Below, piece by piece: positions 1 through 12,897 of a stretch of DNA of 12,897 nucleotides (its first letter is position 1; the number at the start of each line of letters is the position of its first letter). The position numbers were made by a program, and so were the translations under genes. Origin of the DNA: a candidate division WOR-3 bacterium (lineage in GTDB: Bacteria; Hydrothermota; Hydrothermia; LBFQ01; DSFT01). The notes under the pieces are model-generated. The model saw only the letters and a program-made list of their open reading frames with translations, searched no databases and was not told the origin of the DNA. The stretch covers positions 1 through 12,897 of the forward strand of contig CBFGJN010000055.1 in assembly GCA_965649115.1 (NCBI GenBank), written 5' to 3'.

Positions 1-140
1 TTGTTGATTTATTGGGGGGATTATTAGGGGGGCTCTGCCCCCCAAAGCAAAAAATGGGTATTTTAAAGCCGAAGGCTTTTATTTAGGGCGGGTGGGAAAA
101 TAAAGAAAAATAAATAATTCCAGAATTTTTGGACACAGCA
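1..140 (+). repeat. Intergenic modular repeat, copy 1 (left end may lie outside the window)
   Basis: Contains TTGATTTATTGGGGGG (4-19), hairpin GGGGGGC-TCT-GCCCCCC (27-43), hairpin AAAGCC-GAA-GGCTTT (65-79), AGGGCGGGTGGGAAAA (85-100) and end CAGAATTTTTGGACACAGCA (121-140). Positions 47-142 align by eye with 12344-12429, and 5-76 with 7272-7331. Confidence 0.9.
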
Positions 141-159
141 TTAAAAAATAATCAATCAA

Positions 160-171
160 CTTTAAAATTTT
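160..171 (+). promoter_or_regulatory. -10-like CTTTAAAATTTT motif upstream of nuoE
   Basis: TAAAAT at 163-168, 10 nt before ATG 179. The same motif recurs before other first-in-run genes. Confidence 0.55.
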
Positions 172-178
172 GAAACTT

Positions 179-679
179 ATGGAAAAAGAAAAACTTATAG
201 AGGAAATAAAAAATTTAAAACAGATTTATAATAAAGGAAATTCAATCATTATTCCCGCTCTTTGGAGAGCTCAGGAGATATATGGTTACTTATCAGATGA
301 GGCTCTTGAAATTATAGCAAATGAAATAAATAGTACAAAAGAAAAACTTCTTCAAGTTGCTACATTTTATCACTTTTTTCATACAAAACCTACTGGAAAA
401 TACCATATTCACATCTGTACCAATATATCTTGTATGTTGAATTCAGCATATGAAGTTGTTGAAACGTTAAGGAAAGAATTGGGTGTTGATGAAAATGAAA
501 TTACACCTGATGGTTTGTTTTCTTGGGAAGAAATTGAATGTATAGGTTTATGTGATAAACCTGTTGCAGGATTTATAAATCGTTATAGATTAACTAACTT
601 AAACCCAGAAAATATTAAGGAAGTTATAAAAGATCCACAAAAATTTGCTCCACAAAAGCCAATTATTGAATTAATTTAA
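179..679 (+). CDS. nuoE: NADH-quinone oxidoreductase subunit E / thioredoxin-like [2Fe-2S] subunit
   Basis: IIPALWRAQEIYGYL, VATFYHFF, P-G-YHIHICTNISC (Cx4C) and ECIGLC (Cx3C), T-DGLFS are NuoE family motifs. ATG 179 is preferred over TTG 170, which overlaps the -10-like motif. Confidence 0.9.
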   Translation: MEKEKLIEEIKNLKQIYNKGNSIIIPALWRAQEIYGYLSDEALEIIANEINSTKEKLLQVATFYHFFHTKPTGKYHIHICTNISCMLNSAYEVVETLRKELGVDENEITPDGLFSWEEIECIGLCDKPVAGFINRYRLTNLNPENIKEVIKDPQKFAPQKPIIELI

Positions 680-1789
680 ATGATATTCATATTATTTTTA
701 ACTGCATTTAATTTATTTCTTGGGTTTAGTTTGATATTTCCAATTTTCCCTTCCTTTGTAAAACAACTAAATGGAAGTCCTACTGATGTGGGTGCTCTTG
801 TTTCAATTCAGCCACTTATGCAATTTTTATTTTCACCATTTTGGGGAACATTATCAGATAGATTTGGACCAAAAAAATTTATTTTTATAGGTATGCTTGG
901 ATATGCTATTTCATTCTATTTAACAGCAATAGCAAATAATATACAATTTTTATATTTTGCAAGAATTTTTGGAGGAATTTTATCATCTGCTGCTATACCA
1001 ACAATTTTTTCTTATTCCTCTTATATTTCAACAAATGAAAATAGGAATATCTATCTTGGGATAGTAGGTGGTGGTTTTGGACTGGGGCTTATTATTGGTC
1101 CGTTTATTGGAGGAATTTTAGGAATTTTTAATATAAGACTTGTCTTCCTTACTTCATTTTTTATTTTCTTAATAAATTCATTGCTTGTTTTGATGCTTTT
1201 GAAGGATATAAGAGTTCAAAAAATTCAAGAATCTAATAACAAAGTTAAACTAATTAATAGATATATAATTTTTGCACTTTTTGTCAATTTTGTTATTTTA
1301 TTCTGTGCAACGAATATGCAGATTGTTTTGGGAATTCTATTAAACTATAAATTCCATTTAGATGTTCTTAAAATTGGTTTAATTATTGGGATTGGAGGAA
1401 TTTTTGGTGCTATTTCTCAATTGTCTTTAAAGTTTCTTTTAAATTTATTTTCTGAAAAATTTTTAATTGTAATGAGTATATTTCTTTTATCAATAAGTAT
1501 GCTTTTTGTTCCATTTATAAATAATCCAAGTTTGCTATTCATTATAATGATGCTTTACGGTTTGGGATTTGGAATTTCTCAACCTAATATAACTGCAAGA
1601 ACAAGCAAAAAAATTCCAAATGAATATCAGGGTCAATTTATGGGTTTATTTCAATCATCTGGGTCACTTGGTAGATTTTTAGGTCCAATTTTATGTTCAT
1701 TACTATATCAGATTAATCCAAATTTACCTTACTTTTTGGGTGGATTTATTTTGATTGTTGTTTTATTATTTTCAATTTTATGGCTTTAA
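680..1789 (+). CDS. MFS transporter, DHA1/TetA-like drug:H+ antiporter family
   Basis: About 12 hydrophobic segments. Motif A GTLSDRFGPKK, ARIFGG, motif C-like GFGLGLIIGPFIGG, C-terminal QGQFMG...GRFLGP. Confidence 0.9.
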   Translation: MIFILFLTAFNLFLGFSLIFPIFPSFVKQLNGSPTDVGALVSIQPLMQFLFSPFWGTLSDRFGPKKFIFIGMLGYAISFYLTAIANNIQFLYFARIFGGILSSAAIPTIFSYSSYISTNENRNIYLGIVGGGFGLGLIIGPFIGGILGIFNIRLVFLTSFFIFLINSLLVLMLLKDIRVQKIQESNNKVKLINRYIIFALFVNFVILFCATNMQIVLGILLNYKFHLDVLKIGLIIGIGGIFGAISQLSLKFLLNLFSEKFLIVMSIFLLSISMLFVPFINNPSLLFIIMMLYGLGFGISQPNITARTSKKIPNEYQGQFMGLFQSSGSLGRFLGPILCSLLYQINPNLPYFLGGFILIVVLLFSILWL

Positions 1790-2184
1790 TACTTGGTATT
1801 TTTTTTAGCTATTTTTATAGTGTTTTTTACTATGTGATACCAATAAATTTAAATTCCATTTTTATTTTATATTCGCTTAAAAAATATCGTCTTAATGTAG
1901 TTTTGATATTTTCTTTAATTTTTGGTATTCTTTCAGATTTAATTTATCCAAATAAAGTTTGGATTTCGCCTATATTTTACATTATTTTATCCTACTTGAT
2001 AAGTTTTTTCAAAGGAGAATTTGTTTTGATTTTTTTAGGTTTTATTATATGGCTTGTTGGTTATGAAGCTTTTAAGTTTTTTCTTGATTTTAAAACACCT
2101 TTTCCTATATTAATTTTAAGAATTTTTTTAACATCTATAATTTTTTTTGTAGTTTCAAGAGAAAACTTAAATATAGGAAAATAA
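1780..2184 (+). CDS. Small integral membrane protein, possibly MreD-like
   Basis: 134 aa, 4-5 hydrophobic segments, FGILSDL resembles the MreD G-x-x-x-D motif. No mreBC next to it. Confidence 0.5.
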   Translation: MALILGIFFSYFYSVFYYVIPINLNSIFILYSLKKYRLNVVLIFSLIFGILSDLIYPNKVWISPIFYIILSYLISFFKGEFVLIFLGFIIWLVGYEAFKFFLDFKTPFPILILRIFLTSIIFFVVSRENLNIGK

Positions 2185-2390
2185 AAGCCTTATTTTTAAG
2201 GTGAGTGGAAGAAATAAGAAAAGGCTTATATTCAGGGTAGTATGGGGTTTTTAAAAGCTGTAGGCTTGTTTTGTAGGGTGGGTGGAAAGAGCACTTTGTC
2301 CTGATTAAACCTATTGATTTTATTGGGGGTTTATTGAAAGGGGACTACGCTATTTATAAGGTGTAGCCTTAATTATAGGGTGGGTGGGGA
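2185..2390 (+). repeat. Intergenic modular repeat, copy 2 (internally reiterated modules)
   Basis: Four G(G/C)CTT-N6-8-(A/G)GGT(G/A).. units starting at about 2187, 2223, 2263 and 2366. Hairpins AAGCT-GTA-GGCTT (2255-2267) and TAAGGT-GTA-GCCTTA (2357-2371). TTGATTTTATTGGGGG at 2314-2329. Confidence 0.8.
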
Positions 2391-2424
2391 TACGATATTT
2401 AAAAACTTTTTAAGACTTTCTTTG

Positions 2425-2436
2425 TTTTAAAATTTT
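2425..2436 (+). promoter_or_regulatory. -10-like TTTTAAAATTTT motif upstream of the HU-like leader
   Basis: TAAAAT at 2428-2433, followed by a small stem (CACTG 2438-2442 / CAGTG 2454-2458) and AAGGAAG before ATG 2500. Confidence 0.45.
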
Positions 2437-2499
2437 CACACTGGATGTCAGGGCAGTGGAAGGGAAAAGGAAAAAAAACCTAAAAAGGAAGTTTGATCT

Positions 2500-3135
2500 A
2501 TGAACAAGGCACAACTTATAAACGAGGTAGCAAAAAGATCAGGGATAACCAAGAAAGATGCAAAAGCTGCTGTTGGTGCCGTATTTTCAGCAATAAAGGA
2601 TGCTCTTGCAAAAGGTCAAATTATTTCATTCAATATAATTTTTTTGCTTCTGATATTGTTTTCATGTACTAATAAAACTACTGAACCCACTTTGAATAAT
2701 AAGGGAAATGTTGAAGTTGACTCGGAAACAGCACTAATCTATGAAGGTTTAATATCAATTGAAAAAGAAATTTTAAAACATGAAAATAAGGACCTATTTA
2801 CTATTGCTAAAAATAACGAGTCTTATACGCTTGCTTTTATCTCAAAAAACAAAATTTACAATTATCAGTTTTCAACATTTTTGAATAATGTATCTTGTAA
2901 AGTTAAAGAGATAAATAATTTCAGAATTTTAAAAAAGGGGGATAATTCTTATAATATTATTATTTACAAAGAAGGTGATGGAAAGGATTGTTCCCAGTGT
3001 TATCCTTATATTTGGTCATGTTGTAGTTATTCCAAAGACCCCTGTTTTCATTGGATAACCTGTCCACTTGTAGGTTGCACAAGTGGAGCTTGTTATTACG
3101 ATTGCACCTGTCCTCCACTTGATCCAAACGATTAA
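2500..3135 (+). CDS. Chimeric ORF: N-terminal 40 aa of HU fused to a lipobox-containing protein with a Cys-rich C-terminus
   Basis: MNKAQLINEVAKRSGITKKDAKAAVGAVFSAIKDALAKG matches HU helices 1-2. The GFGTF/GRNP arm is absent. It is followed by IIFLLLILFSC (hydrophobic stretch plus lipobox-like Cys) and 10 Cys in the last 49 aa. Confidence 0.7.
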   Translation: MNKAQLINEVAKRSGITKKDAKAAVGAVFSAIKDALAKGQIISFNIIFLLLILFSCTNKTTEPTLNNKGNVEVDSETALIYEGLISIEKEILKHENKDLFTIAKNNESYTLAFISKNKIYNYQFSTFLNNVSCKVKEINNFRILKKGDNSYNIIIYKEGDGKDCSQCYPYIWSCCSYSKDPCFHWITCPLVGCTSGACYYDCTCPPLDPND

Positions 3136-3160
3136 ATTTTGTCTTTTTTATTATTTCATT

Positions 3161-3265
3161 AAAGGGGATGTCAATTTTTTGGGTGGGGAAATATAATAAA
3201 ATTATGGTATCAACAATAATTTATGAACTTTTAATGTACTTCTTGATTTTAGTGAGGGTATTTTA
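3161..3265 (+). repeat. Degenerate intergenic repeat, copy 3
   Basis: AAAGGGGA (3161), GGGTGGGGAAA (3181-3191), AATTATGGTATCAACA (3200-3215, resembles the end module) and TTGATTTTAGTGAGGGTATTTTA (3243-3265). Confidence 0.5.
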
Positions 3266-3270
3266 TTGTG

Positions 3271-3282
3271 CTTTAAAATTTT
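3271..3282 (+). promoter_or_regulatory. -10-like CTTTAAAATTTT motif; probable leaderless promoter
   Basis: TAAAAT at 3274-3279, 7 nt before in-frame ATG 3287. No SD. Confidence 0.6.
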
Positions 3283-3286
3283 CATT

Positions 3287-3508
3287 ATGACACCAAGATA
3301 TGCGATTTTAACTTGCCCTGTATGTTGGAATGAAGTTGATTTAAATGATGACACAATAACATATAACTTCAATGAATATATATTTACATTCTGCTCTGAG
3401 AATTGCTATAATAAGTTTAATGAAGAACCCAATTATTACATAGAAATTATGCTTTCTTCTATAAATCATAAATGCTCTTGTGGTGGAAATTGTTGCTGTA
3501 ATGAATGA
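3287..3508 (+). CDS. YHS/TRASH metal-binding domain protein with a Cys-rich tail
   Basis: CPVC...FTFCSENC...F..EP..Y is the YHS/TRASH pattern. Tail HKCSCGGNCCCNE. Start moved from TTG 3266 to ATG 3287. Confidence 0.8.
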   Translation: MTPRYAILTCPVCWNEVDLNDDTITYNFNEYIFTFCSENCYNKFNEEPNYYIEIMLSSINHKCSCGGNCCCNE

Positions 3509-4389
3509 TATATTATTTTTCAAGTGGTGAATTTGGGAGTTTAGTTTTTTTAGAGATTTTAAAACTAATAGAAATAAGAAAAGTTATAACAATCCCTAAT
3601 AGACCAAAGGGTAGAGGTTTAAAATTTCAAGAACCTTTAATAAAGCGATTAGCATTAGAAAATGATGTTGAAGTTATACAAGTTGAAAATCCAGAAGATT
3701 TGGTATTTGATGAAAGACCTGACTTTATAGTAGTTTGTGATTATGGTAAAATTCTAAAAGAAAAAACATTAAAACTTCCAAAAATTGCTCCATTAAATAT
3801 TCATCCTTCTTTACTTCCAAAATATAGAGGTGCTGCTCCTATTGAGAGAGCAATGATGGAAGGTGATGAAATTGGTGTAAGTATTATTTTAATGAATGAA
3901 AGAATTGATGAAGGAAAAATTATTAGACAAGAAAGAGTAAATTATTCTATTGAAATGACAAAGGGTGATTTATATCCTATATTGGCGCAATTAAGTGCAA
4001 AATTGCTTAAATTATCTATTGAAGATTTTATAAACAATAATGTTAGCTTGGTGGAGCAGATTGGACAACCAACTTATGCTAAAAAAATAAAGAAAGAAGA
4101 GCTATTTTTAGATTTTAATGAAAATTATTTAAAAATTGTAAGAAAGATAAATGCTTTATCTCCAAAGCCAACAGCAAGAGCAATTATAAAAAATTTATAT
4201 TTAAAATTTTATAGAGCCATTCCTTGTGAAATGAAATTAAAACCCTACGAAATTTATATAAATAAAGAAGAATTTATTATTGGTGCATTAGATGGTTCTG
4301 TGAAAATTTTAGAAATTCAACCTGAAAATTCAAAAATTATGAAAGCAAAAGATTTTATAAATGGTTATGCAAAATTAATTCTTGCCTAA
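3505..4389 (+). CDS. fmt: Methionyl-tRNA formyltransferase
   Basis: P-RPKGRG, NIHPSLLPKYRGAAPI, TYAKKIKKEE, RKINALSP-P, EIQPE..K.M.A.DF.NG. Confidence 0.95.
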   Translation: MIYYFSSGEFGSLVFLEILKLIEIRKVITIPNRPKGRGLKFQEPLIKRLALENDVEVIQVENPEDLVFDERPDFIVVCDYGKILKEKTLKLPKIAPLNIHPSLLPKYRGAAPIERAMMEGDEIGVSIILMNERIDEGKIIRQERVNYSIEMTKGDLYPILAQLSAKLLKLSIEDFINNNVSLVEQIGQPTYAKKIKKEELFLDFNENYLKIVRKINALSPKPTARAIIKNLYLKFYRAIPCEMKLKPYEIYINKEEFIIGALDGSVKILEIQPENSKIMKAKDFINGYAKLILA

Positions 4390-5665
4390 TTTTTAGGAGT
4401 TTATTGCTTATTTCAATTGGATATTCTATTTGTGATTTATTTATAGTCTTTAAATAATCTGGAAGTGTTGATAAATTCTCTTTAAAGAATTTCCTTGAAT
4501 TTTCAATTTCTTCATGCTCTAAAACTTTACCATTTTCTATATATTTTTTTAGAAGTGGAACACCTTCGCATTTCTCATCTTCAAGTGCAATAATATCTTT
4601 TACCATTATTCCATTTTTATAAATTCTATAAACTTGTTTTTTACCAGGTAGGGTTATCTTATTTGGTGAAGTTTTTATTTTAAAACCATATTCATCCTCA
4701 ACAAGTTTATAAACTCCGTTTAAATATGGGGCATCTGAACTTGTTCCCATTTTTGTTCCAATACCAAAAGCATCTGCTACTGCCCCCTTCTTCAAAATTT
4801 CATCAATTACATATTCGTCTAAATCTCCTGATAAAAAAATTTTTATATCAAAGCCTTCATTTTTAAACATTTGTTTGACTTTTTTACTTAATTCAACTAA
4901 ATCTCCACTATCTATTCTAACACCTTTAATTTTATAACCTTCTTTAAGTAATTTTATAACTTTCTTTGCTCCTTCAATAGTATCATAAGTATCAATTAGT
5001 AAAACTGGTTCCTTAAAACACTTTAAAAATTCTTTAAAAGCAGTTTCTTCATCGCCAAAGCTCATTATATATGAATGAGCCATAGTTCCATAAACAGGGA
5101 TATTATAAATTTTCCCTGCTAATACATTTGATGTTCCAATAAAATTACAAATATAACTAACTTTTGCTACTTTTAAAGCACTATCAATTCCATGGTCTCT
5201 TCTTGGTGAAAAATCAATACAAGGAATTCCTCTACTTGAAATTATAATTCTTGCACATTTACTTGCTATCATAGATTGGAAGTTAAATTGATTTAAAATG
5301 ATGGTTTCTAGTAATTGAGCTGATATTCTATCAGCAGTTATTCTTATGACAGGTTCATTAGGAAAGTAAATTTGACCTGAAGGAATTGCCCAAACATCCC
5401 CTTTAAATTTAAAATTTTTCAAATAGTCAAGAAAATCATCGGAAAATAATTTCAAGCTCTTTAAATACTTTATATCGTCTTCGCTAAAATGAAACTCAGA
5501 AATAATTTTTATTATATCATCAATTCCAGCACTAACAAGGAAATTTCTATTATTTGGTAAATTCCTAATAAATAATTCAAATGTTGAAATTTCATTTCTA
5601 TTTGATTTAAAATAACTATATGCCATCGTCAATTCGTATAAATCTGTCAAAAGTGATATATTCAT
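4355..5665 (-). CDS. pncB: Nicotinate phosphoribosyltransferase
   Basis: LLTDLYELTM, AQLLET, DF-PRR-HG, GTSNV-AG, GTMAHSY (phospho-His), LIDTYD, GVRIDSGD, FGIGT, VYKLVE, K.TLPGKKQVYR. Confidence 0.95.
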   Translation of the reverse strand: MNISLLTDLYELTMAYSYFKSNRNEISTFELFIRNLPNNRNFLVSAGIDDIIKIISEFHFSEDDIKYLKSLKLFSDDFLDYLKNFKFKGDVWAIPSGQIYFPNEPVIRITADRISAQLLETIILNQFNFQSMIASKCARIIISSRGIPCIDFSPRRDHGIDSALKVAKVSYICNFIGTSNVLAGKIYNIPVYGTMAHSYIMSFGDEETAFKEFLKCFKEPVLLIDTYDTIEGAKKVIKLLKEGYKIKGVRIDSGDLVELSKKVKQMFKNEGFDIKIFLSGDLDEYVIDEILKKGAVADAFGIGTKMGTSSDAPYLNGVYKLVEDEYGFKIKTSPNKITLPGKKQVYRIYKNGIMVKDIIALEDEKCEGVPLLKKYIENGKVLEHEEIENSRKFFKENLSTLPDYLKTINKSQIEYPIEISNKLLKIRQELILHNHL

Positions 5666-5670
5666 ACTAT

Positions 5671-5684
5671 TTAAAATTTTAAGG
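5671..5684 (-). promoter_or_regulatory. -10-like CCTTAAAATTTTAA motif upstream of pncB
   Basis: Minus-strand TAAAAT (5681-5676), 10 nt before ATG 5665. No SD. Confidence 0.55.
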
Positions 5685-5695
5685 CAATTTTTTAA

Positions 5696-5759
5696 TGTTG
5701 TGTTCCATAATTCTGAAAATATCTATTTTTCTAAATTTTGCCTATAATAAAATCAACAA
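5696..5759 (-). repeat. Internally deleted intergenic repeat, copy 4 (inverted)
   Basis: The minus strand reads TTGTTGATTTTATT...AAAAATAGATATTTTCAGAATTATGGAACACAACA, matching copy 1 at 1-13 and 106-140. Confidence 0.75.
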
Positions 5760-5788
5760 ATTTTTTAATAGTCCTTATTTTGTTTAAA

Positions 5789-5811
5789 CTTTAAAATTTC
5801 AGGGGGGGTGA
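5789..5811 (+). promoter_or_regulatory. -10-like CTTTAAAATTT motif and G-rich SD-like site upstream of the secreted-protein gene
   Basis: TAAAAT at 5792-5797 and GGGGGGGTGA at 5802-5811, before ATG 5816. Confidence 0.5.
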
Positions 5812-5815
5812 GAGT

Positions 5816-7271
5816 ATGTTAAGGTTATTAACAACAATAACCTTTTTTATAAGCATAGCATATGCTCAGATAAGTAAAATTGTTTGGATGAATTATAGTG
5901 CAACAGGATGTATAACCTGTCATAAGATAGCATCTGTTAAAATGAACGATACTCTATATATCTTTGGAACATTTCATTATAATAATAAATTAAATCCTTT
6001 CCTTATTGCTGTTGATAGTTTATTAAATATCAAATGGTATAAGGCTTTTAGTCATAATTTGGATAATTTGGCAATTGATAAAATGGTAAAAATTAACGAT
6101 AGCTTAATTGCTATAAGTGGAGGACATACTTATGCTAATGGTCAATGTCCAAATACAAACTGTACATTTTTTGGAATTTTTAATATAAAAAGTCAAAATT
6201 TTGTTTGGGCAAAATATAGGCAATCTGGTGGGTTCCTCTCTGCAACTGCTATTGATTTTGATGGAAATAATTTAATAATTGGAGCACAAAGTGCGATAAA
6301 TAATGGAGGTTCATGGCTAATTAAAGTAGATTTAAGTGGCAATGTCCTATGGCAAAAAATTATAGATATATGAGGAACAGGCTATAATGTAATGGATGTA
6401 GTTTTTGATGGAAGTAATTGGGAATTTAATATGGGCTAAAAATTACGATTTTGGAGCTTATGACCTTGCTTATAAACTACTAAAAGACATTGACGGATAT
6501 AATGATGATATTCTTGTTTTTAAGACTGATTTTAATGGAAATATCTTATGGTCAAAGTTATATTCTTCAAATGTTGCTGGATGGGCTAGTGAGGATAGAG
6601 CTTATAACATAGCATTTGATTATGATGGGAATTATCTTGTTAGTGGTTTTATAAGGGCAAGTTCAAGTTCATCTTATCCAATTGTTTTAAAAATAAATAG
6701 AAATAATGGAAATTTAATATGGGCAAGGGCTTGGACAACACCACCACCGAATACATCTTCAAATGAAGCAAAAGGCATAATATCCATTGGACAAGGAAAA
6801 TTCTATTTATTAACATTTATTGGAAGTGGAATTGATGCTAGTGGAGGATTTGCAATTATTAGAGAAGATACAAATCCAAACTTGGTAGGCCATTGTACTG
6901 AGACAATAAATTTAACTGTTAATTCGTTTACACCAACAGTGGTTAATGAAACTCCAACAATTACAAATGCAAACTATACTTTATATGATTTATCACTTAC
7001 ACCTTATAATCCTTCAATAAATCAAACTTCAAGTTGTCAAATAACCCCAATTTCCAACTATGAATTTTATAAATCTTGTTCTTTTGAAATTAGAGCTAAT
7101 AGAGGTTATATTGATATAAAACTTAAAGAAAGAAATAGTGTTATTATTTATGACATAATTGGAAATGTTGTTTATAGTGAATTTTTTGAAGGTGAAAGGA
7201 AAGTTAAGGTAAAGAATGGGATTTATATTATTAAGGTTGGAAAAGAAAAGGTAAAAATTATTGTAAAATAG
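5816..7271 (+). pseudogene. Disrupted secreted beta-propeller protein with a T9SS type A-like C-terminal sorting domain (ORFs 5816-6373 and 6405-7271)
   Basis: Sec signal peptide ending AYA|Q. Repeated K.D..GN..W blades in both halves. C-terminus IIYDIIGNVV...GIYIIKV...KIIVK. Internal TGA at 6371 and a frame change near 6419. Confidence 0.75.
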
Positions 7272-7372
7272 TGATTTTATTGGGGGCAAAGCCCCCCAAT
7301 GCCGAGAAACGGGCATTTTAAAGCGGAAGGCGTAATTTATAGTTTTAAAATTATTGGACAAGGCAAAGAGCA
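7272..7372 (+). repeat. Intergenic modular repeat, copy 5
   Basis: TGATTTTATTGGGGGC-AAA-GCCCCCCAATGCCGAGAAACGGGCATTTTAAAGCGGAAGGC aligns with copy 1 positions 5-76. End module AATTATTGGACA at 7349-7360. Confidence 0.85.
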
Positions 7373-7384
7373 TTATTTTTTGTC

Positions 7385-7396
7385 CTTTAAAATTTT
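7385..7396 (+). promoter_or_regulatory. -10-like CTTTAAAATTTT motif upstream of ccmE
   Basis: TAAAAT at 7388-7393, 8 nt before in-frame TTG 7402. Confidence 0.55.
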
Positions 7397-7401
7397 CAAA
7401 C

Positions 7402-7782
7402 TTGATAAAACTAAAATATATTTTTATAATAATTGCTCTTATTTTAGCAATAGCATATAGTGTTTATGCAGGTATAAGTAAATCCGCTGTTTATTACTAT
7501 AGAGTTTCAGAAATATATGAAAAACCAATTAAATCAGAAAATATAAAGTTGAGTGGAACTGTTAAAAAAGGTTCAATTTTGAAAAATATGAGCAAAGTTG
7601 AATTTGTAATTTTTGAAAATGATAAAGAAATAAAAGTTGTTTATAATGGTATTTTACCTGATGCTTTTTCAGAAAACAATGAAGTAATAGTTGAAGGATT
7701 TTTTGATAAAAATAATAAAGTTCTTTATGCTAAAAACATCCTAACAAAGTGCCCTTCAAGATATGAAAAGCTTAATAATTAG
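7402..7782 (+). CDS. ccmE: Cytochrome c maturation heme chaperone CcmE, CxxxY variant
   Basis: N-terminal TM anchor, VYYY..SE, G.VKKGS, V.Y.G.LPD.F.E...VIVEG, A..IL.KCPSRY. Start TTG 7402 is inferred because TTG 7354 lies inside the repeat. Confidence 0.9.
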
Positions 7783-8044
7783 AGTTTATGGTAAGGTTCA
7801 GGGTGTAGGTTATAGATATTTTGCTCAAAGACATGCTAGAAGACTTGAAATAAAAGGATATGCAGAAAATATGCCTGATGGAAGTGTTTATATGTTAGCT
7901 ATTGGTGAGGAAGAAAACTTAAAGAAGTTTTTAGAGGTACTAAAGGAAGGACCACCCTTAGCTGTTGTTGAAAAAGTTGAATATGAAGAAAACAAAGACA
8001 TAAAAAATATAGAAAGCTACAAAGACTTTGAGATAAAAGAATGA
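7763..8044 (+). CDS. acyP: Acylphosphatase
   Basis: [33 protein letters not shown]. Confidence 0.95.
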
Positions 8045-8313
8045 ATCTTGAAAGATTTGAAGAACTTGCGAAAATAAAAATTCAGAATGAAAGAGAAAAA
8101 TTTAACAAACATTTTGAAAATATGATAAATTACTTTTCTCAATTAAAAGAACTAAATACTGATGATATTGAACCCCTATTTAATCCAATTGAAATTGAAT
8201 GTCCTTTAAGAGAAGACTTAGTGGGAAAATCAATAGATAGACTAACTGCATTAAATCTATCCCCTGATTATTATTTAGAATTCTTTAAATCTCTTTCACC
8301 TATTAAAAAATGA
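8041..8313 (+). CDS. gatC: Asp/Glu-tRNA amidotransferase subunit C
   Basis: 90 aa. LAKI, I.YF.QL.ELNT..IEP, PLRED, AL..SP.....FF...P are GatC-like. Confidence 0.8.
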
Positions 8314-9266
8314 GGATAGCAGTTTTTGGAGCAACAGGTCTTGTTGGCTCACTAATGATAAAGTTATTAGAAGAAAGAATAAAAGAAAATATTGAAATTT
8401 ATCCTTTTGCAAAAGAAAGTGGAAGATTTATTAAATATAAAGGTAAAGAAATAGAAGTTAAGCCAATTTCAGAGAATGAAATTCCAAAGCTTGATTTTGC
8501 ATTATTTGCTGTTGATAATGAATTAGCTATTAGATGGAAAGATACTTTCAGAAATAAAGGTGCAATTATTATTGACAATTCTTCTGCTTTCAGATTAGAA
8601 AAAGATGTTCCACTTGTAGTTCCAGAAGTAAATTTAGAAGATCTAAAATTTCACAAAGGAATAATAGCAAATCCTAATTGTTCAACGATTCAATTAGTAA
8701 TACCATTAAAAGCTTTAATGAAATTCAATATAAAACGTGTTTTTGTAAGTACTTATCAAAGTGTTTCAGGTGCTGGTAGAGATGGACTAAATGCTTACTA
8801 TTATGAAAAAGAGAATAAAATTTATGAAAAAACACCTTTTGATAAAAAAATTTTTAATAATTTAATTCCACAAATAGGTTCATTTATGAATGGTTATTGC
8901 ACAGAAGAATGGAAAATCATAAATGAAAGTAGAAAAATTTTACACTTTGAAAATTTAATAATATCAGCAACAACTGTTAGAGTTCCTATTGAATTTTGTC
9001 ATTCCCAAAGTGTGGAAATTGATTTAGAAAAAGGAAATTTTGAAGAAATTGAAAATAGTTTAAAAGAATTTAAAGGTATAGTTTATGATAATGAAAATTA
9101 TTTCACACCAATTGAGGTTGTAAATAAAGATGAAGTTTATATAAGTAGATTAAGAAAACATCCGTTTTTAGAAAAAACATTTTTATTTTGGTCAGTATTT
9201 GATAATTTAAGAAAAGGTGCCGCATTAAATGCTATTCAGATATTAGAGAACCTTATTTTGAGGTAG
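8310..9266 (+). CDS. asd: Aspartate-semialdehyde dehydrogenase
   Basis: GATGLVG, IDNSSAFR, PLVVPEVN, IIANPNCST (catalytic Cys), TYQSVSGAG, TEEWK...E..KI, VRVP...HS, DNLRKGAALNA. Confidence 0.95.
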   Translation: MRIAVFGATGLVGSLMIKLLEERIKENIEIYPFAKESGRFIKYKGKEIEVKPISENEIPKLDFALFAVDNELAIRWKDTFRNKGAIIIDNSSAFRLEKDVPLVVPEVNLEDLKFHKGIIANPNCSTIQLVIPLKALMKFNIKRVFVSTYQSVSGAGRDGLNAYYYEKENKIYEKTPFDKKIFNNLIPQIGSFMNGYCTEEWKIINESRKILHFENLIISATTVRVPIEFCHSQSVEIDLEKGNFEEIENSLKEFKGIVYDNENYFTPIEVVNKDEVYISRLRKHPFLEKTFLFWSVFDNLRKGAALNAIQILENLILR

Positions 9267-9268
9267 TG

Positions 9269-9279
9269 TGGACACAACA
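9269..9279 (+). repeat. Isolated end module of the intergenic repeat (TGGACACAACA)
   Basis: 10/11 match to TGGACACAGCA at 130-140 and 12417-12427. Confidence 0.6.
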
Positions 9280-9290
9280 TAAAATTTATC

Positions 9291-9302
9291 CTTTAAAATT
9301 TT
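9291..9302 (+). promoter_or_regulatory. -10-like CTTTAAAATTTT motif; probable leaderless promoter
   Basis: TAAAAT at 9294-9299, 6 nt before ATG 9306. TGGACA (9269-9274) lies upstream with a 19-nt spacer. Confidence 0.6.
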
Positions 9303-9305
9303 AAT

Positions 9306-9566
9306 ATGCTTAACTTGCTTTTAAATTTAACATTGAATGGATTTAGTGCTTTTGGGACAAACTATGGAATATATGGATACTCTACGAGTTTCAATTTAAT
9401 AAATAAACCAAACTACACTTTAAATGTTGGTTTTGGAACGATAAATAGTAATAGTTTTTCTAAAAATTACATGAATTTTGATTTTAAATACAATAAAGGC
9501 TCTTTTTACATTCATATTATTGGAAGTTTTCCCTTGAACTATAACTATGTCCCAAATTTTAGATGA
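9306..9566 (+). CDS. Hypothetical protein, 86 aa, N/G/S/F/Y-rich
   Basis: Fills the gap between asd and ruvB, follows the promoter-like motif and overlaps the ruvB start. Alternating aromatic/polar pattern. Confidence 0.65.
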
Positions 9567-10548
9567 GAATTTATCTCCCTCCGAATTAGAATTTGAGAAT
9601 TCGTTAAGACCTAAAAGACTATCAGAGTTCATTGGGCAGGAAAAAGTTAAAGAAAATCTTGAAATTTTTATAAAGGCTGTTAAAAAAAGAAAAGATGTTT
9701 TAGAGCATGTTCTATTATCAGGACCTCCTGGACTTGGTAAGACTACACTTGCTCATTTGATAGCTAATGAACTTGATGTAAATATAAAAACAACATCAGG
9801 TCCAGTTCTTGAAAGACCTGCTGATTTAGTTGGAATTTTAACATCATTAAATGAAGGAGATATATTGTTTATTGATGAAATTCATAGAATACCACGAATT
9901 GTAGAAGAATATCTTTATTCTGCAATGGAAGATTTTACCATAGATGTAATTTTAGATAAAGGACCCTCTGCAAGAACATTTCGGATAAACTTGCCTAAAT
10001 TTACACTAATAGGTGCTACTACAAGGATGGGTTTAATTTCTCAACCTTTAATTGGTAGGTTTGGAATACTTTTACATCTTGATTATTATTCAATTGAAGA
10101 AATTTTTAAAATTGTTAAAAGGTCTGCTAAAATTTTAAATTTACAAATTGATGATGATAGTGCTTTTGAAATAGCAAGAAGGAGTAGAGGAACACCAAGA
10201 ATAGCAAATAGGCTGTTAAGAAGAGTTAGAGATTTTGCTGATGTTAAAAATAATGGTATTATAAATTTAGATATAACAGTCTATGCTCTTGAATCTATTG
10301 GTGTTGATAAATTTGGACTTGATGAAATTGATAAGAAAATTTTAAAAGTTATTATAGAAAAGTTCAGGGGGGGTCCTGTTGGGATAAAAACAATTAGTTT
10401 GGCAATAAATGAAGATGTTGGAACAATTGAAGAAATATATGAACCTTATCTTATTAGAATAGGTTTTCTTGAAAGAACAAGTAGAGGAAGATTAGTAACA
10501 AAACTTGCTTATGAACATTTAGGATATAAAGTAGAGAAATTAATTTAA
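9547..10548 (+). CDS. ruvB: Holliday junction branch migration helicase RuvB
   Basis: LRPK.L.EFIGQ, Walker [10 protein letters not shown], Walker [51 protein letters not shown]. Confidence 0.98.
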
Positions 10549-10550
10549 TT

Positions 10551-11399
10551 ATGCATAAACCTGTTATGGTTAGTGAAATTATAAAACTAACTGAGCCTAC
10601 GGATAATAGTATAATTGTAGATGCAACATTTGGTTTTGGAGGTCATTCAAAAGCATTTTATGAAATAGTAAAAAATGGATTGATTATTGGATTTGAAAAA
10701 AATGAAAAGACTTATGAAATTGTAAAAGAAATTTTTAAAGATTATTCAAGAATTTTGATTTATAATGTTGGTTATGAGAATATGAGTGAAATTATTGGAG
10801 AACTTGGGTTATTAAATAAAGTTGATATTGTTGTTTTTGATTTGGGACTATCTTCGTTTCTTATTGAAAGGTCGGGATTAGGTTTTAGTTATAAAAGAAA
10901 TGAAATTCTTGATATGCGATTTAGTCAAAAAGAAGGTAAGCCTTTATACCAATTACTTGAAAATCTAACTCAAAATGAAATTGAAAAAATTCTTAAAAAT
11001 TATGGAGATATTAAAAATCCTTATAAAATTTCAAAAGTTATTGTAAATAGCAAACCTATTAAAACAACAAAAGAACTTGTAAGTATTATAGAAAAAATTA
11101 CACCAAGAAATAAACTTGACAAAACACTAAAAAAAGTTTTTCAAGCATTTAGAATCTATGTAAATAATGAGATTGAAAATATAAGAAGGGGTATTTTGAA
11201 TGCTCATAAATGTTTAAAAGTTGGTGGTAAAGTAGCGGTTCTATCTTATCATTCAATTGAAGATAGAGTTATAAAAGGTTTTTATAAATCCCCTCTCTTT
11301 TTTCCACTTTTAAAAAAGCCTTTAAGACCTTCAAGTGAGGAAATTCAACAAAATCCAAGGGCAAGAAGTGCTAAATTAAGAATTTTAATTAAAAGATGA
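10551..11399 (+). CDS. rsmH: 16S rRNA C1402 N4-methyltransferase RsmH (MraW)
   Basis: HKPVM..E, DATFGFGGHS, DLGLSS, GFSY, LDMR, FQAFRIYVN.E, SYHSIEDR.IK, NPRARSAKLR. Confidence 0.97.
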   Translation: MHKPVMVSEIIKLTEPTDNSIIVDATFGFGGHSKAFYEIVKNGLIIGFEKNEKTYEIVKEIFKDYSRILIYNVGYENMSEIIGELGLLNKVDIVVFDLGLSSFLIERSGLGFSYKRNEILDMRFSQKEGKPLYQLLENLTQNEIEKILKNYGDIKNPYKISKVIVNSKPIKTTKELVSIIEKITPRNKLDKTLKKVFQAFRIYVNNEIENIRRGILNAHKCLKVGGKVAVLSYHSIEDRVIKGFYKSPLFFPLLKKPLRPSSEEIQQNPRARSAKLRILIKR

Positions 11400-12235
11400 T
11401 TTTTATAATTCTTTCAATCATAATTTTATTTTTGGGTTTTGGTTTTATAGCTTTTGAGATTGCTTATCTTTCAGTTTCATATCCAATAATTTTTAAATCA
11501 ACAAATAGAAAAGAATTTATAGAAAATCCTGTTGGTATTTTATTTACAATTTTATTTGGTGTAAATGTTTTGTCTATCGTTTATGCAATAATAAGTTTTA
11601 GATTTTTCAAAGAGTTCTTTAATGAAGATTTGTCAATTGTATTTGGAGGAATTTTTTCTACAATTACATTCGTTTTATTTTCTGAATTTGCTCCAAGAAT
11701 TATATCAAGGTTAAATCCTTCAATTATTTTGAGAATTTTTAAATGGCAAATTTTGCTTACATATTATTTAATTTTACCCATAAACTTAATTCTTAAATTT
11801 TTCTCTCCAAAGAATCCTGAAGAGATTATTAAATTGTACTTGGATGAACTTGAAAGAAAACAAATTGTAGATAAATTTGAAAAAGAAGTTATAAAAAGAA
11901 TTTTTGATTACTTGAAAATGGAAGTTAAGAACTTTGTAAGAAAGTTTGAAGATTTTGATATTGTTTCTTTAAATGAGCTTGAAAACATAAGAAATTTTAA
12001 AAGTGATATTATTATTGTTAAGGATGGAGAAAAAATTTTGGGGTACATATATAAGAAACAACTTTTGAAAATTGATGAAATAGAAATTTACGATTTGATT
12101 AATAAACCTGTCTTTATGAGTGATAATTCAAAACTTGAAGATGTTATTAAAGAAATGAAGAATAAAAGAGTAAGTGTTATTTTTACGGAGAGTGGTATTA
12201 TTACGCTTGAAGATGTTTGGAAAGGTGTTATTTAA
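11396..12235 (+). CDS. CNNM (DUF21) transmembrane domain plus degenerate CBS pair protein (CorB/TlyC-like)
   Basis: F.A.E.A..S, TILFG.N, LFSEFAPR (GE..PK-like), P....L and C-terminal GIITLEDV. Confidence 0.8.
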   Translation: MIFIILSIIILFLGFGFIAFEIAYLSVSYPIIFKSTNRKEFIENPVGILFTILFGVNVLSIVYAIISFRFFKEFFNEDLSIVFGGIFSTITFVLFSEFAPRIISRLNPSIILRIFKWQILLTYYLILPINLILKFFSPKNPEEIIKLYLDELERKQIVDKFEKEVIKRIFDYLKMEVKNFVRKFEDFDIVSLNELENIRNFKSDIIIVKDGEKILGYIYKKQLLKIDEIEIYDLINKPVFMSDNSKLEDVIKEMKNKRVSVIFTESGIITLEDVWKGVI

Positions 12236-12239
12236 ATGT

Positions 12240-12427
12240 TGCTTTAACTTATAAAAATTCATTTAGAACTATTGAGGTATAATGTAGTTGGGTGGAAATC
12301 TTATTGATTTAATTGCCCCCTACTGAAATAAGGGCATTTATAAGCCGAAAAATGGGTATTTATAAAGCTCTGCTTTATTCTTAGGGGGTGTGGAAAATAA
12401 ATACTTTCGGAATTACTGGACACAGCA
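12240..12427 (+). mobile_element. Putative MITE-like element; the best-delimited copy of the intergenic repeat
   Basis: 188 bp, begins TGCT and ends AGCA, flanked by the direct repeat TTTAAATGT (12231-12239 and 12428-12436). Contains family modules, including hairpin ATAAAGC-TCT-GCTTTAT (12362-12378) and end GAATTACTGGACACAGCA. Confidence 0.6.
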
Positions 12428-12428
12428 T

Positions 12429-12897
12429 TTAAATGTAAGCTCCATAGTATTCTCTAAATTTTTTCATTTCTTCATTATCACTATTTAAGGCTGATTGAAT
12501 GTCTCCATCAAAAATTTTATAACCATCTTTTAGTAAAATGATTCTATTTGAGATTTTTATAGCACTTCTTAAATCGTGTGTTATTGATATTGTAGTAGTT
12601 TTAAGCTCGCTATTAAGCTTAATAATTAGTTCGTTTATTAGGTCAGATGTAATAGGATCAAGTCCTGTTGTTGGCTCATCGTAAATAATATATTTTGGAT
12701 TGTTAATGATTGCTCTTGCTATTGATACTCTTTTTCTCATTCCTCCTGATAATTCAGATGGATACAATTTTAAAACTCTTTCATCTAAATCAACCATTTT
12801 TAAAACTTCTATTATTCTGCTTTTAATATATTCATTATCTTTTATCCCATTTTCTATTAGAACGAATGCTAAATTTTGATATACATTATAAAAGTCA
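12429..12897 (-). CDS. mlaF: ABC transporter ATP-binding protein, MlaF/Ttg2A-like (5' part outside the window)
   Basis: PSELSGGMRKRVSIARA, YDEPTTGLDPI, ITHD. The frame stays open to the window edge (DFYNVYQNLAF...), so ATG 12797 is internal. Confidence 0.8.
   Translation of the reverse strand, partial: DFYNVYQNLAFVLIENGIKDNEYIKSRIIEVLKMVDLDERVLKLYPSELSGGMRKRVSIARAIINNPKYIIYDEPTTGLDPITSDLINELIIKLNSELKTTTISITHDLRSAIKISNRIILLKDGYKIFDGDIQSALNSDNEEMKKFREYYGAYI

Follow-up and report, generated by a model that had tools for sequence, protein, structure and literature searches.

A miniature inverted-repeat element with IS5-type ends lies at a fixed distance upstream of promoters in a candidate division WOR-3 bacterium

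Introduction

The window analysed here is a stretch of 12,897 bp from a candidate division WOR-3 bacterium (assembly GCA_965649115.1, here G000), which comprises the whole contig C55 (positions 1-12897) and carries related G-rich repeats in its intergenic gaps. These repeats are intact and decayed copies of one non-coding MITE (miniature inverted-repeat transposable element) with a length of 206 bp, whose free right ends mostly lie 21-22 nt upstream of the main promoter box of the host, CTTTAAAATTT. From the observed pattern, namely structure, target duplications, ends shared with a partner insertion sequence (IS), spacing, orientation and stacking, we infer mobilisation, targeting and a sensor: very probably, the non-autonomous MITE is moved by a co-resident IS5-family (IS903-like) transposase, which places the right end at this distance from the box.

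The genome G000 has 1,848,020 bases in 99 contigs with 27.6% G+C and is 94.5% complete, and the public runs that match it best are labelled as hot springs metagenome. It was compared with the sister species G002 (median protein identity to G000 of 91%), which was sampled in part (63 contigs, 1.04 of ~1.6 Mb), and with the two MITE-free relatives G004 and G001, which have about 73% identity and were sampled over 400 and 387 kb, respectively.

The repeats are copies of one linear element

When end motifs are paired in G000, their distances cluster sharply at 200-209 bp (122 of 337 pairs), and these 122 copies, 121 of which are distinct, yield a consensus of 206 bp with a median identity of 85%. 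A profile built from the 122 full-length copies (hit threshold E<=0.001) detects 730 matches at 451 loci, which make up 96,540 bases or 5.2% of the genome, and 261 of the matches cover at least 180 model positions, whereas the same profile finds nothing in a Markov-simulated genome that served as control for copy counts. Only seven matches lie mostly inside open reading frames (ORFs). A first-pass annotation, made from the letters of the window, had predicted a very high-copy genome-wide family and had proposed to build a consensus and count copies; both the prediction and the proposed check hold.

The same annotation had divided the repeats into five modules, A to E, which it regarded as reshuffled from copy to copy. 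The corresponding patterns occur 41, 404, 133, 188 and 66 times on both strands of G000 (pattern B is nearly self-complementary and therefore mostly counted twice) and not once in the simulated genome. However, among 273 elements that are complete from end to end and 100-260 bp long, 265 keep the order A<B<C<D<E, and the modules are therefore consecutive parts of one element; decay had been misread as reshuffling, and the odd module orders in the window exist because copies have been stacked, deleted and decayed. Only the right part of the element had been seen; its left end, the target duplications and the fixed promoter position had been missed.

The strict end motif was found 486 times in G000, 142 times in G002, six times in G013 and once in G003, and it is absent from the other 57 of the 61 genomes searched, including G001 and G004. 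Furthermore, the motif of hairpin C is abundant in G000 and G002 only among 64 genomes of the class. The high-copy MITE family is restricted to one genus.

Ends, target duplications and the partner insertion sequence

The inverted ends of the MITE pair over 17 bp. Exact duplications of 9 bp flank 105 of 268 end pairs (60-300 bp) and 53 of 113 full-length copies, versus 11 pairs with 8 bp and none with 10 bp, so that the MITE-like nature suspected from the window is borne out by ends and duplications alike. The 105 duplications comprise 95 distinct 9-mers without any consensus beyond A/T richness, and the target 9-mer would follow no sequence rule.

The same ends are present on stubs of an IS, since 16 identical non-MITE right ends lie at contig ends and 10 IS left ends near contig ends run into the N-terminus of a transposase. 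IS and MITE share ~25 bases at the left end and 17 at the right end, and a metagenome contig (L199) carries a MITE right end, a 9-bp spacer and then an IS left end. As the G000 gene itself is not assembled, membership in the IS5 family was tested on P0001, a full-length relative of the transposase, which scores 238 bits on the IS5 model NF033579 (NCBIfam cut-off 140), whereas none of the ISLre2, ISKra4 or IS256 models is among its 14 NCBIfam matches at E<=0.01. The residues D115, D194, E256 and K263 are invariant across 73 aligned P0001 homologs, the predicted fold of P0001 resembles those of DDE transposases and integrases, and the plasmid sequences most similar to it, ISNov2 and ISRhba5 with 31-32% identity, are annotated as IS5 family. 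Judged by sequence, the partner matched by ends and duplications is an IS5-family IS with a single-ORF DDE transposase, and we take it to belong to the IS903 group, to which the ISAba12-like ends and the 9-bp duplication fit. The MITE would accordingly be moved in trans by this co-resident transposase. The Pfam DDE families have no match in G000 because the IS is collapsed at contig ends. Moreover, no intact IS was found between paired ends, as seven pairs of 0.75-1.8 kb and two more held ordinary genes, and no relatives of the transposase were found in viral contigs.

In G013, a related IS5-type element with similar ends is present as 12 stubs at contig ends (L237-L248), which lie in A/T-rich patches of a G+C-rich genome.

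The promoter box of the host

The main promoter box of the host, CTTTAAAATTT, contains TAAAAT as -10 element. It lies 7-20 nt upstream of 32 of 46 tRNA/tmRNA genes, with six of the other 14 being later genes of clusters, and 342 boxes are located 6-11 nt before an in-frame ATG, compared to 17 at 0-5 nt. Therefore, it can be assumed that the mRNAs are mostly leaderless. The box is also present without MITE at orthologous genes of relatives, and no conserved -35 box is found among 114 such promoters in 400 kb of the MITE-free G004. Of 571 gene promoters in G000, 233 have a MITE right end 12-24 nt upstream and 338 do not. As the promoters have no conserved -35 and the mRNAs would mostly be leaderless, an insertion would leave the gene working and the family can therefore fill ~40% of the promoters.

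The host appears to use a single -10-only box, with examples in the window at 163, 3274, 5676, 7389 and 9294, and in G001 two of the window genes share a palindromic double promoter. The sigma-70 gene of G000 (L405, contig C12) carries changes in the first helix of region 4.2 that are common to all five genomes of the genus and missing in the other 25 aligned members of the class, while the RERxRQIE helix is kept. A loss of sigma region 4 in the host was rejected, as the region is intact.

Right ends lie at a constant distance to the promoter box

The motif TAWAAT starts 21-22 nt from 179 of the 318 free right ends in G000 (free right ends being those that do not touch another copy). Of the left ends, 6 of 162 have this spacing, and the background at random positions is 0.9%. 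The same peak is found in the 63 contigs of G002 (42/75) and in metagenome loci (19/36), and it is shared by the IS, of which 11 of 13 free right ends but 0 of 10 left ends have this spacing. Relative to the insertions the box, which is nearly symmetric, points forward in 164 cases and only in reverse in three, i.e., insertions lie upstream and not downstream of it. One IS (contig C3) landed within an older MITE end, duplicated that end and is still located 21 nt from the box. The transposase would hence set the right end of MITE or IS 21-22 nt upstream of the box, facing the gene. Around 50 further free right ends lie 13-16 nt from a box. Here, a TGCTT of the promoter might act as a false element end, for which the support is weak (16 of 49 cases versus 31 of 179, p 0.03).

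Adjacent matches are arranged head-to-tail in 218 of 250 cases, the distance from one end to the next end is 9 nt in 109 of 132, and the promoter-side copy of a stacked pair has the higher score in 81 of 112. New copies would land again at the same promoter distance, push older copies outward and build head-to-tail stacks, which would then decay by deletion, and repeat landing plus deletion would thereby give the mixed module orders in the window.

Objections and alternative explanations

Several points weigh against promoter-directed insertion. No box is found at either spacing for 77 of the 318 free right ends, 54 fall at 13-16 nt and thus outside the 21-22 nt peak, and the copy at 12240 in the window has no promoter. 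An older right end directly adjoins 59 of the 105 copies with perfect duplications, so that many insertions are repeat landings and not independent choices. Clean empty sites are rare, and at 36 syntenic junctions where only G000 has a MITE, the G002 sequence mostly matches just over the 5-10 nt beside the box. The related IS in G013, from another family, has no such spacing to the TATAAT promoters of that genome (0 of 6 right ends). Furthermore, an intact transposase gene is missing from the G000 assembly and was not found in G002 either, P0001 is only ~50% identical to the N-terminus of the G000 transposase, and the box is assigned as promoter from sequence; one public RNA run covers 13 of 30 bins and does not resolve start sites. 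Finally, the target 9-mer falls about where the intact sigma region 4 would bind. Taken as a whole, the targeting looks real yet confined to this lineage.

The first alternative is that an ordinary IS903-like MITE with loose A/T-rich targeting merely survives where it does no harm, being purged from genes and core promoters and multiplied by stacking. The high coding density with few matches inside ORFs, the frequent landings next to older ends, the 9-nt spacing in stacks and the G013 relative without promoter spacing are in line with this. However, selection predicts a broad tail past a threshold, whereas of 227 right ends located 12-44 nt from a box 161 fall on two of 33 positions, with 14 being expected from a uniform distribution. 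Survival also does not predict the difference between right ends (161/318) and left ends (3/162). The share at 21-22 nt drops with the age of the copies from 83 of 112 in the youngest bin to 23 of 63 in the oldest, the reverse of what slow purging would produce, and the identical IS stubs are also among the most exact. Even among first arrivals, which are not repeat landings, 17 of 36 lie at 21-22 nt. We therefore regard survival alone as unlikely.

A second and considerably less likely alternative is domestication, i.e., that the element supplies a -35-like hexamer or an upstream element, or insulates genes by its hairpins. The right end indeed contains TGGACA/TAGACA, and the hairpins show paired changes: hairpin C covaries across copies (C-G in 78 and G-C in 40 of 122), and the loops of hairpin B, mostly GNA/AAA or their reverse complements, flip between triloop and reverse complement. 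These changes point to DNA hairpins but may be mutational, as strand-switch repair of near-palindromes can yield paired changes without selection. The hexamer is 26-27 nt away from the -10 box, whereas the usual spacing between -35 and -10 is 16-18 nt, and a hybrid -35 from the MITE end was rejected for this reason. Moreover, the same box, like TAAAAT at 163-168 of the window, is kept without the element at the orthologs in G001, G003 and G004, most G000 gene promoters do without a right end at 12-24 nt, the window copies contain no terminator-like site, and the folds of single window copies are no more stable than those of shuffled sequences (z -0.55 to -1.62).

Palindromes of the REP/BIME type spread by a HUH (RAYT) transposase, or a family of structured non-coding RNAs, both options of the first-pass annotation, are most improbable. 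GC-rich triloop hairpins are present, and the interiors of 12 sampled full copies have more stable folds than shuffled sequences (median z -1.9 to -3.4). However, a combination of inverted ends and 9-bp duplications is typical of DDE elements, the ends are common to the IS5-family element, the Y1 transposase domain (Y1_Tnp, PF01797) has no match in the 94.5% complete G000, and the Rfam check gave no match at E<=1 in the window.

On the minus strand of the MITE, promoter-like boxes at consensus positions 45-60 and 123-134 point out through the left end, and a strict box near 45-65 is present in 27 of 122 full copies as a possible outward promoter.

What might be sensed

If the transposase places its right ends relative to the promoter box, it has to recognize something there. 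The box was never hit inside MITEs (0/62), whereas gene-start boxes were hit in 199 of 435 cases, and no nesting hot spot exists at promoter-like boxes inside the MITE. Together with the upstream-only placement (164 versus 3), this favors a working promoter over the bare sequence, with the caveat that MITE-borne boxes are younger and that downstream insertions would be purged. The most likely sensor might thus be the promoter in use, either via RNA polymerase or via opened DNA, which we consider about evenly balanced against all else; that the transposase reads the box directly appears rather unlikely, although less so than any other route. Since the target is situated in the zone of sigma region 4, a simple tether to a resting promoter-bound holoenzyme is not obvious, and it is equally plausible that promoter DNA is sensed when opened or only just vacated. 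A predicted complex of the transposase with sigma regions 2-4 (score 0.00) favors neither side.

Gene order at promoters

Using ORFs called by a simple script, breaks in gene order between G000 and G002 were found at 65 of the 123 junctions where either genome has a MITE. By comparison, they occur at 8 of 90 junctions that have a promoter but no MITE and at 9 of 489 that have no promoter. The homology between both genomes usually ends 5-10 nt upstream of the box. However, the MITE-free genomes G004 and G001 (with orthology assigned through G000) also have different upstream neighbors at 32 of 42 promoter-bearing genes, as do G004 and G000 at 123 of 148. As genomes without the MITE differ at promoters too, the case for the MITE as cause of the shuffling is weakened. 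Shuffling at promoter edges is seen throughout the genus; the MITE may accelerate it or may merely share tolerant sites.

Copies in the window

The features of the window are listed in Table 1. The gene content is that of housekeeping functions, with genes for a 2Fe-2S ferredoxin-like protein, an MFS transporter, a formyltransferase, nicotinate phosphoribosyltransferase, ccmE, acylphosphatase, gatC, asd, ruvB, mraW and an ABC ATPase, and no transposase gene is present, as had been noted before.

Table 1. MITE copies, target duplications and promoter boxes in the window (positions in bp; E values from the MITE profile).
Feature	Position	Strand	Remarks
Young MITE, right 140 bp (model 66-206)	1-140	+	Profile match 2-140, E 1e-35; right inverted repeat extends to 140
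Expected 9-bp target copy after right end	141-149	+	Left partner off contig; length from family duplication
Host -10 box TAAAAT	163-168	+	22 nt past MITE end, 10 nt before ATG (179) of thioredoxin-like 2Fe-2S gene
Two or three MITE copies in a decayed head-to-tail stack	2185-2413	+	Model 137-180, 120-163, 58-188; remains of a left end near 2294
Possible old remnant, not significant	3210-3260	+	Best profile match E 1.4
-10 box, nicotinate phosphoribosyltransferase gene	5676-5681	-	14 nt past MITE end (minor spacing class)
Internally deleted MITE	5696-5759	-	Profile match 5742-5696, E 0.004; right end at 5696
MITE copy with deletion: modules A-B-C followed by right end at 7366	7272-7366	+	Profile match 7274-7337, E 2.1e-10
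-10 box, ccmE-acylphosphatase-gatC-asd unit	7389-7394	+	22 nt past MITE end
Likely last 11 bases of MITE right end, weak alone	9269-9279	+	11-base match; no profile match
Left target duplication copy, 9 bp, TTTAAATGT	12231-12239	+	Perfect match to 12428-12436
Decayed MITE of 188 bp, flanked by two convergent genes and without a promoter close by	12240-12427	+	Profile match 12245-12427, E 7.6e-14
Right target duplication copy, 9 bp, TTTAAATGT	12428-12436	+	Perfect match to 12231-12239

Of the seven gaps in which related segments had been named, five are supported by the profile (1-140, 2244-2413, 5696-5742, 7274-7337 and 12245-12427), and two, 3161-3265 and 9269-9279, are not. The former had been taken for a degenerate copy, but nothing significant is found there; the latter, proposed as the end of an element, retains the match of its last bases and its spacing to the -10 box at 9294-9299, which starts 14 nt after 9279 and lies 6 nt before the ATG at 9306. 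The bounds of the last copy, 12240 and 12427, had been drawn exactly, as the perfect 9-bp duplication TTTAAATGT on both sides demonstrates, whereas the fifth copy does not extend to 7372. Thus, the spacing classes in the window are 22 nt (ends 140 and 7366), 14 nt (ends 5696 and 9279) and none (end 12427).

The copy at 1-140 is truncated by the contig end and has 99% identical copies elsewhere in the genome. Within the stack at 2185-2413 the profile matches 2304-2413 (E 1.6e-8), 2244-2288 (E 0.0075) and 2185-2227 (E 0.26); the stack is missing at the G002 ortholog, where the whole block 2150-3258 is absent. G002 has an element end at the same place as the end at 7366, and the site of the 12240-12427 copy is empty in its ortholog. 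Among the matching public contigs, no empty allele of any window copy was found.

Directly behind the decayed stack, window positions 2423-3135 contain a partial copy of an HU gene (promoter, leader and first 41 codons, 95% copy) which is fused in frame to a lipoprotein-like paralog and begins right at the promoter box. Its source is the intact HU gene on contig C4 (7873-7672), and the lipoprotein-like part is related to a sequence on C40. A stretch of 14 bases in the HU leader (window 2451-2464) is a perfect complement of bases immediately behind the stop codon of the intact gene, 338 nt on, and this pairing is preserved with changed letters in G004 and G001, which suggests a putative stem closing the 5' and 3' ends of the HU mRNA. 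Two ORFs of 185 and 288 amino acids at 5816-7271 resemble one split gene, with paralogs on C9, C10 and C12 at 65-86% and variant copies on public contigs. Elsewhere in G000, repeated words unrelated to the MITE form long arrays, probably of the CRISPR type (C1:75716-77463, C32:52-1730, C35:81-2717, C66:8175-9251).

Comparison with known systems

The closest parallel in structure is MITEAba12 with ISAba12, which generate 9-bp duplications and have ends resembling those described here (PMC6382973). Like our element, MITEAba12 is short and non-coding with inverted ends of 16-17 bp beginning with GCTTTGT, and a co-resident IS with a single DDE-encoding ORF mobilises it in trans, as would be the case here, with interiors unrelated beyond the ends. 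Unlike here, the available passages of that paper report no fixed promoter distance for MITEAba12. IS903B has several insertion sites within and ahead of mgrB according to the available part of PMC10513040, and no such insertion rule is described in the available parts of PMC7780238, PMC10513040 and PMC9208149.

A fixed distance is known from the Mutator-like elements TnGBS, ISLre2 and ISKra4, whose insertions lie 15-17 bp upstream of the -35 box and share one orientation (PMC3942029, available passages). Oriented promoter insertion at a fixed distance was tested for our element and found as well. However, the transposase is of the IS5 family and not Mutator-like, so that the element does not belong to these groups; most copies are non-autonomous; and the 21-22 nt between the right end and the downstream -10 box place the insertion within the would-be -35 zone of promoters without -35 conservation, instead of upstream of a -35 site.

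Correia and ERIC elements likewise have hundreds of intergenic copies, size variants and hairpins, with 711 ERIC copies in Photorhabdus (PMC10969869; PMC3184786). Unlike the MITE, they have different ends, and no fixed promoter distance is given for them in the available passages of these papers; Correia elements carry promoters of their own, whereas the MITE sits beside that of the host.

In the literature searched, mostly without subscription papers or supplements, no report of promoter-anchored IS5 elements or of this MITE was found, and there fixed-distance promoter insertion is described only for the Mutator-like TnGBS, ISLre2 and ISKra4. What appears new is therefore the promoter-anchored insertion of an IS5-family MITE, whereas the repeat family as a MITE is of an ordinary kind.

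Implications

We propose tentatively, as a scenario slightly short of evenly balanced, that the IS5-family transposase of one hot-spring lineage evolved its own promoter targeting. It would sense working -10-only promoters and insert within a base or two, which would provide a safe harbor for the MITE at ~40% of the promoters, and the copies would now speed the shuffling of promoters together with their genes. Promoter-directed transposition would thus have a second case, with an IS5-type transposase of ~300 residues, hundreds of natural sites and a precision of two bases. How a transposase finds a promoter becomes directly testable with it, the mechanism being untested in the Mutator-like superfamily too, and the system could yield a small tool for non-disruptive insertion. 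For the biology of this uncultured bacterium, the order of insertions can be read from the stacks, and several hundred of its promoters are mapped by the MITE ends.

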